Below are positions 606 through 60,887 of a stretch of 64,000 bases of DNA, one piece after another (position 1 is the first letter of the stretch; every line of letters starts with the position of its first letter). Where the stretch lies: positions 283,393-347,392 of IMG/VR virus record IMGVR_UViG_3300042879_006196. One strand, written 5' to 3'. The notes below the pieces were generated by a model. That model saw nothing but the letters and a program-made list of their open reading frames with translations. It did no database searches and was not told the origin of the DNA. The stretch is from a virus. The translations under genes and the position numbers were made by a program.

Positions 606-1421
606 TTAATAATTCTTATACGTTTTTTCTTTGATATATTGCTTTAAATGACAGTCTTTCTTATAACCAACTCGCTTCACTGAACAATAATTTTCAATTA
701 ACTTTTGATCAATTTGTGATTCTGTAATGACTGAATTGTGATTATTTATTCTATTTGAAGGATCAAATGTGCCGAAAAATGGCGGAAACATCCAAGGTTG
801 ACCTGTTTTTAATGCCATGTAGCCTGGAAACAATTGTATTAAGTCTCTATTAGGGTATATATCGAATGCATTATCTAAATACATCTGGCACAATCTTACA
901 GCTTCATCAGTGAGAAATGCATACTCCCAGTTACTCACCATTGCATTTTCAACCTCTAAAAATAAGTTCATTCCTTTTTCATCCCAATTATGTGTTTCAT
1001 ATTGTATTAAAGGATTACCAATTGTAATGTTTGTAAAATCTTTTCCTGTATATGTAAAGTCCCAATTTGGGCAATTATAAAATTGCAAATAATTGACATT
1101 TCTTTCAGGATTAAAAGAATTGATCAAATATTGATTGGCTGAAAATAAACAAAGATGATCAAAATCTATAGGATTAGATCGTAAAAAATAAAGTAAATCA
1201 ACAAAAACTCCAAAAATAAATCTTGATTGATTTACAGGTTGCACCACATGTTTTAATTTTACATTTGGATGATCAACATATGGATGATTGATTATAATTT
1301 CGCAATTCTTGTCAAAATAATTAATATTTTCACACATGTCTTGCAAATCATCATAATCTTGATTTCTTGCATCTCCAAAAATCAAATACAGTGTTTTTGT
1401 TTTTTTTACACAATCTGACAT
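606..1421 (-). CDS. Hypothetical protein in the glycan-biosynthesis locus
   Basis: 271-aa ORF on the same strand as the neighbouring sugar-modifying genes and overlapping the next gene by 16 nt. No recognisable motif. Confidence 0.4.
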   Translation of the reverse strand: MSDCVKKTKTLYLIFGDARNQDYDDLQDMCENINYFDKNCEIIINHPYVDHPNVKLKHVVQPVNQSRFIFGVFVDLLYFLRSNPIDFDHLCLFSANQYLINSFNPERNVNYLQFYNCPNWDFTYTGKDFTNITIGNPLIQYETHNWDEKGMNLFLEVENAMVSNWEYAFLTDEAVRLCQMYLDNAFDIYPNRDLIQLFPGYMALKTGQPWMFPPFFGTFDPSNRINNHNSVITESQIDQKLIENYCSVKRVGYKKDCHLKQYIKEKTYKNY

Positions 1422-2296
1422 ATTTGTTCTAATCTTTCTCCCACAAGTGAAATTATGTCTTGCTCATATTTTACTACATATTCTTTCATTTTGTCATCTG
1501 AATCTAAATAATGCAAACAGCTTTTGATTGTTTTTTCTTCATTTTCTAGATTGTGTAACCATCTTCGCCAAGGAGCATTTTTTTCAATTTGTTCTAAGAA
1601 ATATGTTTTATCTTCAAGCTTTAAATTGTCAAAAATCACACTATTACTTATGTAAGTAAATTCAGGGGCGTAATTGTAAGCTGATATACCTAGATCGCAC
1701 AAGATTTTCAATTCTTCATCAGAATGAAAATCACAATTGTGTCTTTTCACTTTCACTTTATACTTTTCAGCTTTAGCCACGTAACATTTTGTTTTTTCAA
1801 TATCAATTGGCGAAATATTTTTACAATCAAAAACCACTGATCCTCCTTGGCACACAATATATTCAACTTTATCCAAAAAAGGTGTAATGTCGTTCAAAGC
1901 AATGTCAAACAACAATGTTGAAAATTTAGCAATAAAATCTTCTGTTCCAAATTCAAATTTTATATTTTTGTTAGCTTCAGTGAATTCATGCATCCATTTT
2001 ATACATTCTGAACTATAACGTCCAGAAAAGTACCAGGGATCTATATGAATCATATCAAATTTTTCAGCATCGAAGGCAATAATTTTTTTATCAAATTTTT
2101 CCATACAAAAATGATCTCTTTCAACTATTAGCTCAGATTTTAAGACTTGATCAATAATTGTTTTGCTTACATAACCATTTTCATGATTGAATTGCCGTTG
2201 TGAAAGAATAAAACCAATTGGTAATCCACTTTTTAAAATAGATTTAAGAATTGGTTCATTTACTGGAGATATAAATAGTTTAGGAAGTTTTTTCAT
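1406..2296 (-). CDS. Hypothetical protein in the glycan-biosynthesis locus
   Basis: 296-aa ORF tightly packed between the flanking locus genes. No confident motif. Confidence 0.4.
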   Translation of the reverse strand: MKKLPKLFISPVNEPILKSILKSGLPIGFILSQRQFNHENGYVSKTIIDQVLKSELIVERDHFCMEKFDKKIIAFDAEKFDMIHIDPWYFSGRYSSECIKWMHEFTEANKNIKFEFGTEDFIAKFSTLLFDIALNDITPFLDKVEYIVCQGGSVVFDCKNISPIDIEKTKCYVAKAEKYKVKVKRHNCDFHSDEELKILCDLGISAYNYAPEFTYISNSVIFDNLKLEDKTYFLEQIEKNAPWRRWLHNLENEEKTIKSCLHYLDSDDKMKEYVVKYEQDIISLVGERLEQICQIV

Positions 2297-2303
2297 TTGA
2301 TTT

Positions 2304-3842
2304 CTACTCGTTCATTGTCATAAGTTTATTTAAGTTGTACCAACCCATACAATAAAGCAATGTAGCTTCTTCACCTGTGTGTACTCCAGATGAAGATAAT
2401 TGTATTAGCGCCACTATAGTGTCAATAACATTCATGTTTATGTTTCTTTGTAAACAAAACGCCTCTAACGTTTTCATTAGTTCAAGATTTTTTTCTGGAG
2501 TTCCAGCATCAAAAAAACATTGATTGTTTTCAAGCTTCACATAAAATTTATTGTTTTTAATCGCTTCATGATCAAATATCAGATTGTGTTTCATTTTAGC
2601 AATATCATAATACCAATCACCTTTACTATTGCCAAAACCTTCTCTCCAATCAATTAAAATAAACCCTTCATTTGTTTTAATAACATTTTCAAAAACCAAA
2701 TCTCCATGAGCAATGCACTGTTGTGTTGGAAACTTTTCAAATAGTTCGCTTGCGATGTTTATAAGTTCCGATAAAGGTTTTACTTTTCTAAAGTTTATGT
2801 TTTGAATTTCAGAAAAATTGTTTTTTTTGTTTTTATGAAAGTTTTCTATTCTTTTGGAAGCTTTGTCAATGTAAAAATTTTTGAAAAAATTCAAACTAGT
2901 GTGTTTATATTTTTGCCATAAATTGTTTTCACACCAAATTAAAAAATTTTCAAGCAAATCTTGTGTTAATATTTTTGATAAAGTAATTCCCTTTACAAAA
3001 TTGTAGTAAATGAAATTATTTTTTGAATAACATTCAGGAGCACATGAAGATAACACCTTGCTTCTTTCATAAAGTTTTTTTACTTTTTCTTTATCACTGA
3101 AAAATTTAACAATTTTTTCATTAACATAATATGTTTCTTCATTCATTTTTGGCAACACGCAAATCTCTTGTTTGAATTGTTTTTGCGCACTTCTTAAAGC
3201 AATAAAATTACCAATATCTATCCAGTTTTTTGTTTCAACAAAGTCAATGTTCATTTGTTGAAGAATGTGTGCGTCAGATAAATTTTGTGTTTTATTTTTA
3301 TTCAATTCTTTTATTGTTAATTCTTTAAATAAATCTATATTTTCAATATAAGCCACACCTGTATAGCAAAATTCTCCCTCTTTGGCAGGCGTATCTTCGA
3401 TTTTTTTTGATTCATCATTCAATTCGCTTATTTTTCTATATTGGTTGCTTACAAATGTTTTTGAAAAAACGGCAAAATCATTACTTTTATGAGGCACATT
3501 TGAAATATAAGTATCACAAGCATTGTAATAAAAAGGTTTATCAATCACGTCGAATGTGCATGATAAAGAGTAAAGCAATGAAGATTGTGTGCTTTCATAG
3601 TCATCTACTTCAACAAATTCTATATTTAAATCAGAGTGGTTAATCTCAATATAATCTTTAACTTGCTCTTTTAAATACCCTAAAGTTATAATAAATTTTG
3701 AAGCTCCTGGATAACTATCAAATATGTGCGAAATTATAGCTTTATCGCCAAGTTTGATCAAAGCTTTGTTTAGGAAATCAGTAATTGGCTTCAATCTTGA
3801 ACCAGTTCCTGAGCAAGTAATTACCACGTCAAAATTTTTCAT
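2304..3842 (-). CDS. Two-domain sugar-phosphate/phosphocholine nucleotidyltransferase plus small-molecule kinase (LicC-like N-terminus, LicA/APH-like C-terminus)
   Basis: The N-terminus VVITCSGTGSRLKPIT is the G-x-G-x-R-L nucleotidyltransferase motif. The C-terminus HGDLVFENV...ILIDWREGFG resembles the Brenner motif and D-x-x-x-x-N of choline/aminoglycoside kinase-like folds. Confidence 0.6.
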   Translation of the reverse strand: MKNFDVVITCSGTGSRLKPITDFLNKALIKLGDKAIISHIFDSYPGASKFIITLGYLKEQVKDYIEINHSDLNIEFVEVDDYESTQSSLLYSLSCTFDVIDKPFYYNACDTYISNVPHKSNDFAVFSKTFVSNQYRKISELNDESKKIEDTPAKEGEFCYTGVAYIENIDLFKELTIKELNKNKTQNLSDAHILQQMNIDFVETKNWIDIGNFIALRSAQKQFKQEICVLPKMNEETYYVNEKIVKFFSDKEKVKKLYERSKVLSSCAPECYSKNNFIYYNFVKGITLSKILTQDLLENFLIWCENNLWQKYKHTSLNFFKNFYIDKASKRIENFHKNKKNNFSEIQNINFRKVKPLSELINIASELFEKFPTQQCIAHGDLVFENVIKTNEGFILIDWREGFGNSKGDWYYDIAKMKHNLIFDHEAIKNNKFYVKLENNQCFFDAGTPEKNLELMKTLEAFCLQRNINMNVIDTIVALIQLSSSGVHTGEEATLLYCMGWYNLNKLMTMNE

Positions 3843-3867
3843 TCATGCATATTATACATAAACTTCG

Positions 3868-60164: not shown

Positions 60165-60500
60165 ATGGGTATGTTCACAAGGATAAAAGTAAATAACAAC
60201 AAGTTTATTCAAATATATTGTGGTGGTGATATGTTGAAAACTTACGAAATTGGAGATTCCGTTCCCTATTGTTTATATGTTGAAAAAACTCGTTTTGAAT
60301 GTTTTGCTGATGGTGCTTATAAGGGTTTTTGCGAAGATAAAAATGATGACAATCATTATTGGGTGATAATTAAAAATTCAAAAGTTGAAACGGTGCTTTG
60401 CCAAAACAATATAGTTTTCGAGCGTGACGAGTATAAAAGTTTATATGAAGATACTTTGGATTTTTTGATTAAAAAATATAATTTACCACAAGTTCTGTAG
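60165..60500 (+). CDS. Hypothetical protein
   Basis: 111-aa ORF, followed by the promoter-like repeat. Confidence 0.35.
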   Translation: MGMFTRIKVNNNKFIQIYCGGDMLKTYEIGDSVPYCLYVEKTRFECFADGAYKGFCEDKNDDNHYWVIIKNSKVETVLCQNNIVFERDEYKSLYEDTLDFLIKKYNLPQVL

Positions 60501-60509
60501 TTTTCGAAC

Positions 60510-60539
60510 CTTCCACACAATCTGAGCGTATAAAATAAT
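60510..60539 (+). promoter_or_regulatory. Repeated promoter-like element CCTTCCACACAATCTGAGCGTATAAAATAATATG (also at 59506-59535, 60135-60164 and 60857-60890)
   Basis: Four near-identical copies, each ending at or just before a start codon. Copies 3 and 4 extend to about 65 bp of similarity. The TATAAA lies 5-6 nt from the ATG. Confidence 0.45.
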
Positions 60540-60794
60540 ATGCATTTGTGGTTCACTGCTTATAATCCAAAAACAAAAGAAGCATGCAATGTGTTTGTGG
60601 TTGGAAGTGCAATAGATGGTGTGTACGAGGAAGATTTGTTGAGAGCTTTTTTGACAAAAAACGTTGAGCAAGATTTAGTGCTTAGCAATAGTGACGAGCT
60701 TTTAGACCGTGTGTACGATGAAGGCGGGGTTCATCTAAACAGACTATCAATAACTGAAAAAGAAAAATATATTAAATCTGTATACAGTAATTAA
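60540..60794 (+). CDS. Hypothetical protein
   Basis: 84-aa ORF, starting 5 nt after ...GAGCGTATAAAATAAT. Confidence 0.35.
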   Translation: MHLWFTAYNPKTKEACNVFVVGSAIDGVYEEDLLRAFLTKNVEQDLVLSNSDELLDRVYDEGGVHLNRLSITEKEKYIKSVYSN

Positions 60795-60887
60795 TGTTAA
60801 CAATTTCGTGGCTAGGAGGTGAAAATATAATTTACCACAAGCTCTGTAGTTTGCAACTTTCCACACAATCTGAGCGTATAAAATAAT

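Follow-up and report, generated by a model that had tools for sequence, protein, structure and literature searches.

The window analysed here comprises 64,000 nucleotides of the IMG/VR virus record IMGVR_UViG_3300042879_006196 (positions 283,393 to 347,392). It carries, on both strands and in large excess, the nine-nucleotide word ACACAATCT (reverse complement AGATTGTGT), which is the subject of this report. The window is part of a huge tailed phage of about 356 kb and 31% GC (guanine plus cytosine) from freshwater lakes. The same sequence is present in several lake metagenome assemblies in contigs of up to 356,595 bp. Encoded in the window are Hsp70, an S-adenosylhomocysteine hydrolase (13558-14790), a Y-family polymerase, two TnpB elements, a LAGLIDADG endonuclease, ThyX, a deoxynucleoside-monophosphate (dNMP)-kinase-like protein, a GH108 lysozyme, a truncated adenylosuccinate-synthetase-like protein, an NrdG-like activase, a NusG-like protein (36416-36946), a signal-peptidase-like protein and ClpP. 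A SigW-like extracytoplasmic-function (ECF) sigma factor (37008-37595) and a second, weak sigma-like protein (35710-36408) are encoded next to the NusG-like gene. 3' of these three genes lies a transfer-messenger RNA (tmRNA) gene (38142-38525, +) with the unusual tag peptide AKKNRRNGFGSAQAGFAMVA. Many open reading frames (ORFs) of the window have no family match. Relatives encode a head-tail adaptor, a CCA-adding enzyme, Ro60 (TROVE), GatB and an aminoacyl-tRNA synthetase. The phage gene content, the large contigs and the head-tail adaptor of a relative together identify a huge tailed phage. The INPHARED phage collection contained no DNA match; at the protein level it gave weak matches only, to freshwater cyanophages and a Listeria jumbo phage.

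An exact search of the window found 52 copies of ACACAATCT/AGATTGTGT, 27 on the plus and 25 on the minus strand. Dinucleotide-preserving shuffles of the window yielded 1.06 ± 0.99 copies and never more than 4. The original prediction, made by eye from the letters, had reported at least 44 copies against a chance expectation of 0.5 and had called for such a control. All 44 exist and the expectation was of the right order. Thirty-four of the 44 coordinates were exact and ten were off by 1-10 nt (e.g., 33340 is 33330 and 57941 is 57931); eight copies had been overlooked (1548, 2581, 3582, 8809, 10218, 15473, 35926 and 63541). Five variants matching at eight of nine positions are likewise real, each 0-7 nt from the place given for it. 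The word is the top-ranking 9-mer of this DNA of 31-32% GC and outnumbers every A/T-rich word. Its density is about 0.8 per kb, i.e., roughly one copy per 1.2 kb. The sub-words CACAATCT and ACACAATC occur 61 and 57 times, respectively, and thus the unit is 9 bp long. Outside of the word the positions are nearly information-free (G at +1 in 25 of the 52 copies, a weak A at +2, a weak C at -1). Clustering on the flanks resolves 49 independent contexts among the 52 copies. Common flanks are seen exclusively in four intergenic copies, those at 59511, 60140, 60515 and 60863.

Where do the copies lie? The simple gene call which we used assigns 93% of the window to coding DNA. With respect to it 24 copies are sense, 20 antisense and eight intergenic or at gene boundaries, 44 of the 52 (85%) fall into coding DNA, and all six frames are used, as had been predicted. 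In sense orientation the word is read as HNL at 1548-1556 (-) in ORF 1406-2296(-), at 2581-2589 (-) in ORF 2304-3842(-), at 8809-8817 (-) in ORF 8454-9164(-), at 29649-29657 (+) in the ThyX ORF 29083-29919(+), at 33330-33338 (+) in the Y-family polymerase ORF 32479-33702(+) and at 37277-37285 (+) in the ECF sigma-factor ORF 37008-37595(+). It is read as TQS at 3582-3590 (-), also in ORF 2304-3842(-), at 23571-23579 and 23688-23696 (both +) in ORF 23220-23789(+), at 35926-35934 (+) in the sigma-like ORF 35710-36408(+), at 43510-43518 (+) in ORF 43156-43677(+), at 50691-50699 (-) in the Hsp70 ORF 50325-52205(-) and at 53317-53325 (+), immediately 3' of the ATG of ORF 53314-53622(+), which therefore begins M-TQS. 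DTI is the reading at 11065-11073 (+) in ORF 10599-11258(+) and at 19232-19240 and 19397-19405 (both +) in the dNMP-kinase-like ORF 19105-19779(+). NTI results at 32759-32767 (+) in the polymerase and, in the absence of an insertion, at 51986-51994 (-) in Hsp70. Further sense copies are at 29985-29993 (+) in ORF 29897-30757(+), at 45353-45361 (+) in ORF 44978-45382(+), at 46622-46630 (+), where the word reaches into the stop codon of ORF 45658-46632(+), and at 46714-46722 (+), where it forms codons 6-8 of ORF 46698-48110(+). The copy at 4327-4335 (+) is within the alternative ORF 3868-4557(+), an ambiguous gene call.

In antisense orientation the encoded tripeptide is most frequently DCV: at 1408-1416 (+) in ORF 606-1421(-), at 10218-10226 (-) in ORF 9808-10614(+), at 15473-15481 (-) in ORF 15420-15803(+), at 31290-31298 (-) in ORF 30763-31695(+), at 33582-33590 (-) in the polymerase ORF, at 43371-43379 and 43458-43466 (both -) in ORF 43156-43677(+) and at 63541-63549 (-) in ORF 63287-64000(+). 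QIV is encoded at 15679-15687 (-) in ORF 15420-15803(+), at 19586-19594 (-) in the dNMP-kinase-like ORF, at 25810-25818 (+) in ORF 25733-26269(-) and at 36278-36286 (-) in the sigma-like ORF 35710-36408(+); EIV at 43571-43579 (-) in ORF 43156-43677(+); and RLC at 8344-8352 (+) in ORF 7828-8457(-), at 52518-52526 (-) at the start of ORF 52509-52976(+) and at 55646-55654 (-) in ORF 55331-55729(+). Antisense copies are also located at 29039-29047 (-), near the end of the adenylosuccinate-synthetase-like ORF 28105-29064(+), at 46526-46534 (-) in ORF 45658-46632(+) and at 29953-29961 (-) in ORF 29897-30757(+). The latter forms the closest pair, with the next copy 23 nt away.

The remaining copies are at or between gene ends. 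One (19052-19060, +) is in the intergenic region between divergent genes where ORF 16551-19055(-) starts. Another (19792-19800, -) overlaps the GTG start of the 941-amino-acid (aa) repeat-protein gene 19797-22622, a position kept in all family paralogs of relatives. A third (50253-50261, +) adjoins a terminator-like hairpin, and that at 54462-54470 (+) immediately follows an ATG of a short ORF and was counted as intergenic in the gene calls used. The intergenic copy at 57931-57939 (-) is situated about 60 nt past the right end of a TnpB element and not at its boundary. The copy said to reside in the tmRNA gene is indeed there, at 38411-38419 (-), on the opposite strand. Promoter-like repeats had also been named as a location, and the copies 59511-59519, 60140-60148, 60515-60523 and 60863-60871 (all +) occupy spacers of AAC-N17-CGTATA sites. 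Seven intergenic (G)AAC-N17-CGTATA sites are spread over 54015-62812 (at 54018, 59503, 60132, 60507, 60855, 61469 and 62788). In form they correspond to promoters of SigW-like sigma factors, the class to which that of the phage belongs. Together with the phage's own sigma factors they look like a phage-specific transcription programme.

The word bends the coding sequences. The copies in coding sequences number 45, compared with 5.6 ± 2.3 when synonymous codons are shuffled within each gene and 0.96 when codon order is shuffled. Hence, both the choice of codons and the amino acid sequence are bent toward making ACACAATCT, which bears out the claim that selection acts on a nucleic acid word rather than on a peptide. 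The tripeptide TQS occurs ten times (2.6 expected), and all ten are encoded by ACACAATCT (ACA CAA TCT). DCV is found nine times (1.0 expected) and RLC five times (0.9 expected). The alignment of the Hsp70 gene with its orthologue in the relative L339 (see below) is gap-free at either word site, and consequently these words arose by substitution and not by insertion. The copy at 45353, in an array of five small tandem paralogs, arose by three adjacent changes, TTG to CAC, compared with the other members. In this array (43647-45382, +) the paralogous genes of about 103-134 aa each have overlapping stop and start codons and share the C-terminal end, in which the 12-mer CAGATTTGGGTG occurs five times in one orientation.

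The layout along the window is irregular. Spacing is Poisson-like (coefficient of variation 1.04) with gaps from 32 to 4,960 nt, and the order of orientations looks random. Fourteen copies are within 30 nt of a gene boundary, where 6.6 ± 2.4 are expected, and the word is about twofold enriched at gene boundaries as well as in intergenic DNA. These were the strand and gene-versus-spacer comparisons suggested at the outset. The sense to antisense ratio of 24:20 (1.2:1) equals the codon-usage expectation of 1.32:1.

ACACAATCT is missing from mobile and fast-evolving genes. The exact search found no copy inside either TnpB gene, none inside the two large, fast-evolving ORFs 16551-19055 and 19797-22622, and none in the stretch from 38.5 to 43.3 kb. 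The TnpB elements are of the IS605 type (33655-35014, +, and 57986-59329, -, in the window; a third at 17736-19136 of L247), and none contains the word. Their left end bears a conserved hairpin, CCCCATC...GGTGGGG, and GGTAGTTCAC closes the right end. Identity between the two window copies is 67%, and the same left end is present in L340. A tie of the word to TnpB, its target-adjacent motif or its guide RNA was rejected, the word not being at the element ends. The gene 19797-22622 (+) belongs to a clade-specific family with several paralogs per genome, also found in L010, L257 and L008. A conserved N-terminal domain of about 330 aa is followed by 4-13 tandem repeats of 23 aa (consensus LSEDFIREFxDKVxWxxISxxQx). 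The window copy is 85% identical on the amino acid level to that of a strain with a genome 97.5-98.5% identical.

The word is not confined to this phage. It had been proposed to look for it in related genomes, and there it is. Three distant relatives have it at comparable density (L008, 17 copies in 21.7 kb; L010, 16 in 17.5 kb; L257, 17 in 13.1 kb), and the IMG/VR contigs L341 and L342 contain 8 and 10 copies. In the sequence compared, these five have only one gene family in common with the window, the 23-aa-repeat protein, at 47-50% identity. Across distant relatives the density is 0.6-0.9 per kb. ACACAATCT is the top 9-mer in L008 and L010; in L257, L341 and L342 it is present at 0.5-1.3 per kb, and repeat-derived or A/T-rich words are commoner there. 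Most copies of L010 and L257 are at three conserved places in one paralog family of the 23-aa-repeat protein; at one of these the GTG start codon is inside AGATTGTGT. After removal of such non-independent copies 103 independent contexts are left in 174 kb of clade DNA. The exact word is found 128 times in 152 kb of pooled clade DNA as opposed to 153 times for all 27 one-mismatch variants together, which demonstrates that all nine positions are read. In L007, a strain diverged by 2%, a single copy is altered, that at 15679 (to AGATTGTAT). This amounts to one change in 162 site columns versus 2.17% elsewhere, a difference in the expected direction at a divergence too small for significance.

Controls are essentially devoid of the word. 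Unrelated metagenome contigs totalling 948 kb contain 5 copies (0.005 per kb). These contigs, and the phage L258, came from a metagenome scan with the adenylosuccinate-synthetase-like protein, which was otherwise swamped by bacterial PurA owing to the universal WGDEGKGK motif. Other Hsp70-carrying huge phages examined have no ACACAATCT, and nothing comparable is present in distantly related low-GC huge phages that have pseudopilin, lysozyme and repeat-protein family in common with this phage. When IMG/VR was scanned for pairs of the word, most matches proved to be chance pairs or tandem repeats; L028, L033 and L086 were the three true relatives among them. Over-represented words of other phages were set aside: those of L248, L249 and L252 are tandem protein repeats, and that of L367 and L368 is a long promoter-like consensus. 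In these two IMG/VR contigs (189 kb and 365 kb) the consensus of about 22 nt, AAAnTTTTATAnAAGTCAAGCSYT, occurs 17 times in 20 kb with conserved flanks. From all of this one can conclude with high confidence that the dispersed word is real, lineage-specific, a matter of DNA and under directional pressure.

A different picture emerges in other relatives. L339, a contig of 330,597 bp (ENA ERZ19570040 scaffold_1) of the same lake series, has an Hsp70 88% identical to that of the window and a DNA identity of 72-86% in orthologous genes. It contains 17 copies of another word, ACACAAAAC (0.5 expected), on both strands, in unrelated flanks and with the same weak flank preferences. L339 holds only three copies of ACACAATCT, and the window holds one ACACAAAAC. 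In L340 (370 kb, Hsp70 71% identical) the core ACACAAT is found 19 times (5.6 expected), with five full copies of ACACAATCT. Contigs of 370,252 bp (ERZ28593946 scaffold_1), 239,548 bp and 166,522 bp (IMGVR_UViG_3300042691_050360) also belong to the clade. The outgroup huge phage L256 has 18 copies of AAACAATC (2.1 expected); its syntenic relative L255 has no word, and neither have the relatives L345-L359. L258, with an adenylosuccinate-synthetase-like protein 55% identical to that of the window, has seven copies of CTACTCCA (0.17 expected), which is unrelated in sequence to ACACAATCT. In these dialect words one half, ACACAA, is constant and the other varies (TCT or AAC). The complementary strand in all four dialects is G+T-rich and has no C.

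Do these words replace each other in place? Along 7.4 kb of orthologous alignment the window sites have 1-3 changes in L339, and the ACACAAAAC sites of L339 are non-words in the window that differ at 2-4 positions. Thus the two words occupy different places, i.e., they were gained and have decayed independently. Individual sites illustrate this. The two Hsp70 copies and that at 63541 have decayed in L339, AAATTGTGT takes the place of the copy at 46526, and the copy at 45353 is retained. ACACAATCT is also present in L086 and L341; between their pseudopilin and that of L339 the identity is 92%. On two gene markers the ACACAAAAC phage is thus flanked by ACACAATCT phages, which looks like a derived switch. 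In L339 an inverted pair of ACACAAAAC (8008-8041) flanks a GGGAG...CTCCC hairpin between convergent or adjacent genes, an arrangement like that of the paired DNA uptake sequences (DUS) at Neisseria terminators. No inverted pair of this type was seen in the window.

Which host does the phage infect? The nearest cellular homologs of its DnaK (60-62% identity) are from Fimbriimonadaceae and other metagenome-assembled genomes (MAGs) of Armatimonadota. The phage pseudopilin of the DUF1559 type (24211-25242, +) is likewise closest, among cellular proteins, to one of a Fimbriimonadaceae MAG (54% identity over 93 residues). On the strength of these two genes we tentatively place the host in Armatimonadota. 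The GC gap between 31% in the phage and 60% in the candidate-host MAG would be unusually large if this assignment is right. A 21.9-kb stretch of this one MAG has no copy of the word and no ACACAA core. The proposed inspection of the host genome has thus been carried as far as one stretch of a tentatively assigned lineage. In species genomes, searched with a pattern of direct-repeat pairs that is ill suited to this purpose, no both-strand enrichment was seen among the 120 stretches listed, which were mostly tandem or CRISPR-like arrays. Close pairs of ACACAATCTG recur there in Poribacteria MAGs (L139, L143, L180 and L233, which are one Candidatus Poribacteria MAG, and L195, L214, L229 and L230). 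L214 has nine ACACAATCTG copies in one orientation within 8 kb. Probably this is a genome repeat family.

Two further groups of genes deserve mention. From 606 to 12841 extends a glycan-synthesis cluster with a fucosyltransferase, GT2, GT11 and GT25 glycosyltransferases, a GDP-mannose-dehydratase-like epimerase, a mannose-6-phosphate isomerase, three sugar-type methyltransferases and a nucleotidyltransferase. The truncated adenylosuccinate-synthetase-like gene (28105-29064, +; 319 aa) is positioned beside ThyX (29083-29919), with the dNMP-kinase-like gene at 19105-19779. Its product matches a PHROG annotated as a PurZ-type enzyme; it scores 104 bits against an NCBIfam PurZ cut-off of 300, and PurA models score higher. 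A QueE identity of the radical S-adenosylmethionine gene was rejected. The gene is NrdG-like and does not support a 7-deazaguanine modification of the DNA.

How then does the word function? Random spacing, neutral orientation, a placement wherever the sequence permits, absence from newly arrived DNA and a fast turnover of positions are the marks of a density signal and are unlike site-specific regulation. Most likely, the word acts by its density and is maintained by a directional process, and not by the position of single copies. We consider it somewhat more probable that its reader is encoded by the phage than by the host. An interpretation with a fair, though less than even, chance is a word-based self-recognition of the phage: about 300 copies and a phage reader would serve to tell its own DNA from that of the host and of competitors. 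Such recognition may serve protection, preferential recombination, replication or packaging. The specificity of the reader may shift between close relatives, whereupon the genome may be rewritten from ACACAATCT to ACACAAAAC.

The mechanism which we prefer to the others, though it is less likely than not, is a Chi-like attenuation of a phage-encoded end-processing enzyme. A sequence-specific phage protein would read the word as DNA. During recombination-dependent replication and repair, on which large phages depend, an end-processing helicase-nuclease would be stopped or switched at the word. DNA bearing the word would then survive and be copied, and wordless DNA of the host or of competing phages would be degraded. 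In mixed infections wordless alleles would be resected and replaced by word-bearing ones, i.e., a molecular drive. Such a drive would account for an about 50-fold enrichment at the expense of protein sequence. Breaks can occur anywhere in recombination-dependent replication, and this would call for a high density on both strands. A change of reader specificity would start a new dialect, and the old word would decay neutrally. L339 retains 0.14 copies per kb of the old word; by our own calculation this is near the survival of 0.8^9 which about 20% divergence would leave. Phages without a recombination module of their own that gather host Chi (PMC12315714; see below) are a precedent. The complementary strand of the dialects is G+T-rich, like Chi and other recombination hotspots.

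Several observations weigh against self-recognition by a Chi-like mark. Neither a reader protein nor a helicase-nuclease was found in about 200 kb of clade DNA, which corresponds to roughly one quarter of a single genome together with pieces of related ones. There is no local polarity of orientation within the 64 kb, unlike in Chi-rich phages, where 20 of 23 sites (LLS) and 32 of 32 sites (MD8) point the same way (PMC12315714). Poisson spacing with gaps of up to 5 kb does not agree with functions that need regular coverage. The four or five copies in promoter spacers fit a DNA-binding regulator equally well. The host evidence comes from one 22-kb stretch of one MAG, with a host assignment from two genes. 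Lastly, known Chi words are 5-8 nt long and ACACAATCT has 9 nt. A recognition site for a phage DNA-binding or recombination system had been listed among the options of the original prediction; the evidence now favours this option, and its reader protein was not found in the DNA just specified. Two candidate readers were discarded. The 23-aa-repeat family as a modular reader was set aside since the repeats vary from 4 to 13 among paralogs in phages that share one word, and a ComP-like role of the pseudopilin was rejected as the pseudopilin does not covary with the dialect. A PADLOC scan of large proteins without family match returned nothing.

The main rival of self-recognition is a DNA-binding regulator or nucleoid protein. 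According to this proposal the copies are genome-wide sites of a phage protein, be it a stoperator-like monomeric repressor, a nucleoid or a packaging protein, which would silence, compact or organise the genome; the dialects would be diverging immunity or specificity groups. We rate it as unlikely, though ahead of all other rivals. The resemblance to the stoperators of Cluster A mycobacteriophages is considerable: an asymmetric site, 20-30 copies per genome of about 50 kb (about 0.5 per kb), some of them inside promoters, and a consensus that is not the same in every related phage and evolves in step with its repressor, a monomer of two domains (PMC6550527, PMC9283540). Of the seven intergenic SigW-type sites, five have a copy in the spacer, four of these being exact and one matching at eight of nine positions, and L008 has one copy in such a spacer in opposite orientation. 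Also, a constant half ACACAA and a variable half TCT/AAC would fit a reader with two sub-sites. Nevertheless, the word is a 9-bp site located in coding DNA in 44 of 52 cases with only four or five copies in promoter spacers, and the orientation is neutral with respect to codon usage. Furthermore, site positions are not conserved between relatives, contrary to what a position-tied function would require, and no repressor or integrase was seen.

Next, ACACAATCT might be the Chi of a host RecBCD or AddAB which the phage mimics, the dialects reflecting different hosts. By accumulating it the phage would evade degradation and exploit the recombination of the host. This is rather improbable. It is a fact that phages can collect Chi: lambdoid phages without a recombination module of their own, such as LLS, accumulate host Chi to one site per 1.86 kb, and a phage genome can thus hold about 0.5 Chi per kb (PMC12315714). 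As here, Chi is an over-represented asymmetric word that acts by density, and the lack of the word in recently acquired genes is in line with mimicry. Chi and other recombination hotspots are G+T-rich, as is the complementary strand of the word, and Chi sequences differ between bacterial species. On the other hand, a word of nine nucleotides with all positions specified and about 50-fold enriched exceeds all Chi sites known to us. The orientation of 27:25, known for the 64-kb window only, contrasts with the polarity of LLS and MD8. The approximately 200 kb examined showed no gene for a RecBCD or AddAB partner, neither word nor core is present in the stretch from the candidate host lineage, and relatives in the same lake use different words.

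Somewhat less probable still is the idea which led the original prediction, a DNA-uptake sequence of a naturally competent bacterium. A competent host would prefer DNA with ACACAATCT, and the phage would recombine with the host or be a prophage subject to the same drive. In statistical terms the comparison was well chosen. Like the DUS of Neisseriaceae and the uptake signal sequences (USS) of Pasteurellaceae this is a short, non-palindromic word at about one copy per kb on both strands (52 in 64 kb) with Poisson-like spacing. It occurs within genes in every frame, skews the use of codons and peptides and is more frequent in intergenic DNA and at gene boundaries; its exact copies greatly outnumber near-copies, and related lineages have dialects which share a core, as in the Neisseriaceae (PMC3630211). 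Moreover, the phage encodes a pseudopilin, and a Secretin_N-domain protein is encoded just outside the window. The biology disagrees. The carrier is a huge phage and not a competent cell, and no ComP-like uptake receptor is evident. The pseudopilin is of the DUF1559 type, and those of L086 (ACACAATCT) and L339 (ACACAAAAC) are 92% identical in spite of different dialects. The word is also lacking in other huge phages that have related pseudopilins at equal GC content. Terminator-type inverted pairs are rare here. The negative searches in the Fimbriimonadaceae stretch and in the listed species-genome stretches speak, though weakly, against an uptake sequence of the host.

A start site for primase is a long shot. 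The complementary strand, 3'-TGTGTTAGA-5', would serve as template for a primer 5'-ACACAAUCU, needed on both strands every few kb. The density per strand, about one per 2.5 kb, is of the order of an Okazaki fragment, and both orientations are used. The first two letters are AC in the window word, in that of L339 and in the core of L340, as they are in the primers of T7 (pppACAC, pppACCC) and T4 (pppAC), and it is the 5' half of the word that is constant and the 3' half that varies. However, known primases read about 3 nt, not 9, gaps per strand extend to about 9 kb with Poisson-like spacing, CTACTCCA does not begin with a purine, and no primase gene was seen in the window.

We attach an equally small probability to a target of a site-specific DNA enzyme, either a nickase like those of phages T5, phiKMV and tf or a base modifier such as a methyltransferase. 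In phage tf an asymmetric nick consensus of 9 bp is over-represented, with 14 copies in 46 kb, far above chance (PMC3517423). The window encodes the S-adenosylhomocysteine hydrolase and several methyltransferases. Yet the known nick sites are on one strand only and number 4-14 per genome (PMC3517423), whereas here the strands are equal and the window count extrapolates to about 290 copies per genome. By type the methyltransferases belong with those acting on sugars or small molecules, and their genes lie in the glycan cluster; a DNA methyltransferase was not found in the window. In addition, modification as such gives no reason for a 50-fold enrichment.

A loading site for the phage NusG paralog (36416-36946), in analogy to ops, or another signal on the RNA level is highly improbable. 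The signal would have to be in the non-template strand or in the mRNA. The NusG-like gene adjoins the two sigma-factor genes, and pooled loci outside of the window are biased to the sense strand. This stronger bias stems mostly from paralog copies and is otherwise near the codon-usage expectation (sense to antisense 1.32:1 for ACACAATCT, 2.5:1 for ACACAAAAC, 1.7:1 for AAACAATC); the window itself has 24 sense versus 20 antisense copies, and antisense copies are largely maintained as strongly as sense copies.

That the copies are not independent, an objection which the original prediction had raised against itself, can practically be dismissed, be it as a dispersed repeat, a mobile-element footprint, the insertion of 9 bp or paralogy: the paralog family of L010 and L257 and the four window copies in a promoter-like context partly agree with it, yet the 49 flank contexts, the lack of indels at word sites in the Hsp70 alignment and in the strain comparison, the distance from TnpB boundaries and the site made by three adjacent changes refute it for the window.

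ACACAATCT thus differs in at least one defining property from each of the DUS/USS, Chi, stoperators and phage nick sites. A literature search for the word returned primer sequences only, and full-text searches returned no description of such a word in phages. To our knowledge, dispersed words with dialects are otherwise known only from the DNA-uptake and Chi signals of bacteria, and genome-wide words of the density type have been described for cellular chromosomes, with host Chi in lambdoid phages and mycobacteriophage stoperators as the exceptions. We know of no precedent for a virus with its own analogue of DUS or Chi that discriminates kin.

Here, then, is a virus which maintains its own word as densely as bacteria do an uptake sequence and pays for it in protein sequence, and whose relatives have swapped the word. 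For practical purposes the words offer an inexpensive means of binning and classifying such phages in metagenome data. The phages with ACACAATCT and ACACAAAAC constitute a natural experiment on molecular drive, a long-standing question in the field of DUS and USS. If the reader is encoded by the phage, the word would represent a novel means by which a virus marks its DNA as self. This would then bear on replication, recombination and competition in co-infections of huge phages, and on the co-evolution of a recognition specificity with about 300 genomic sites.

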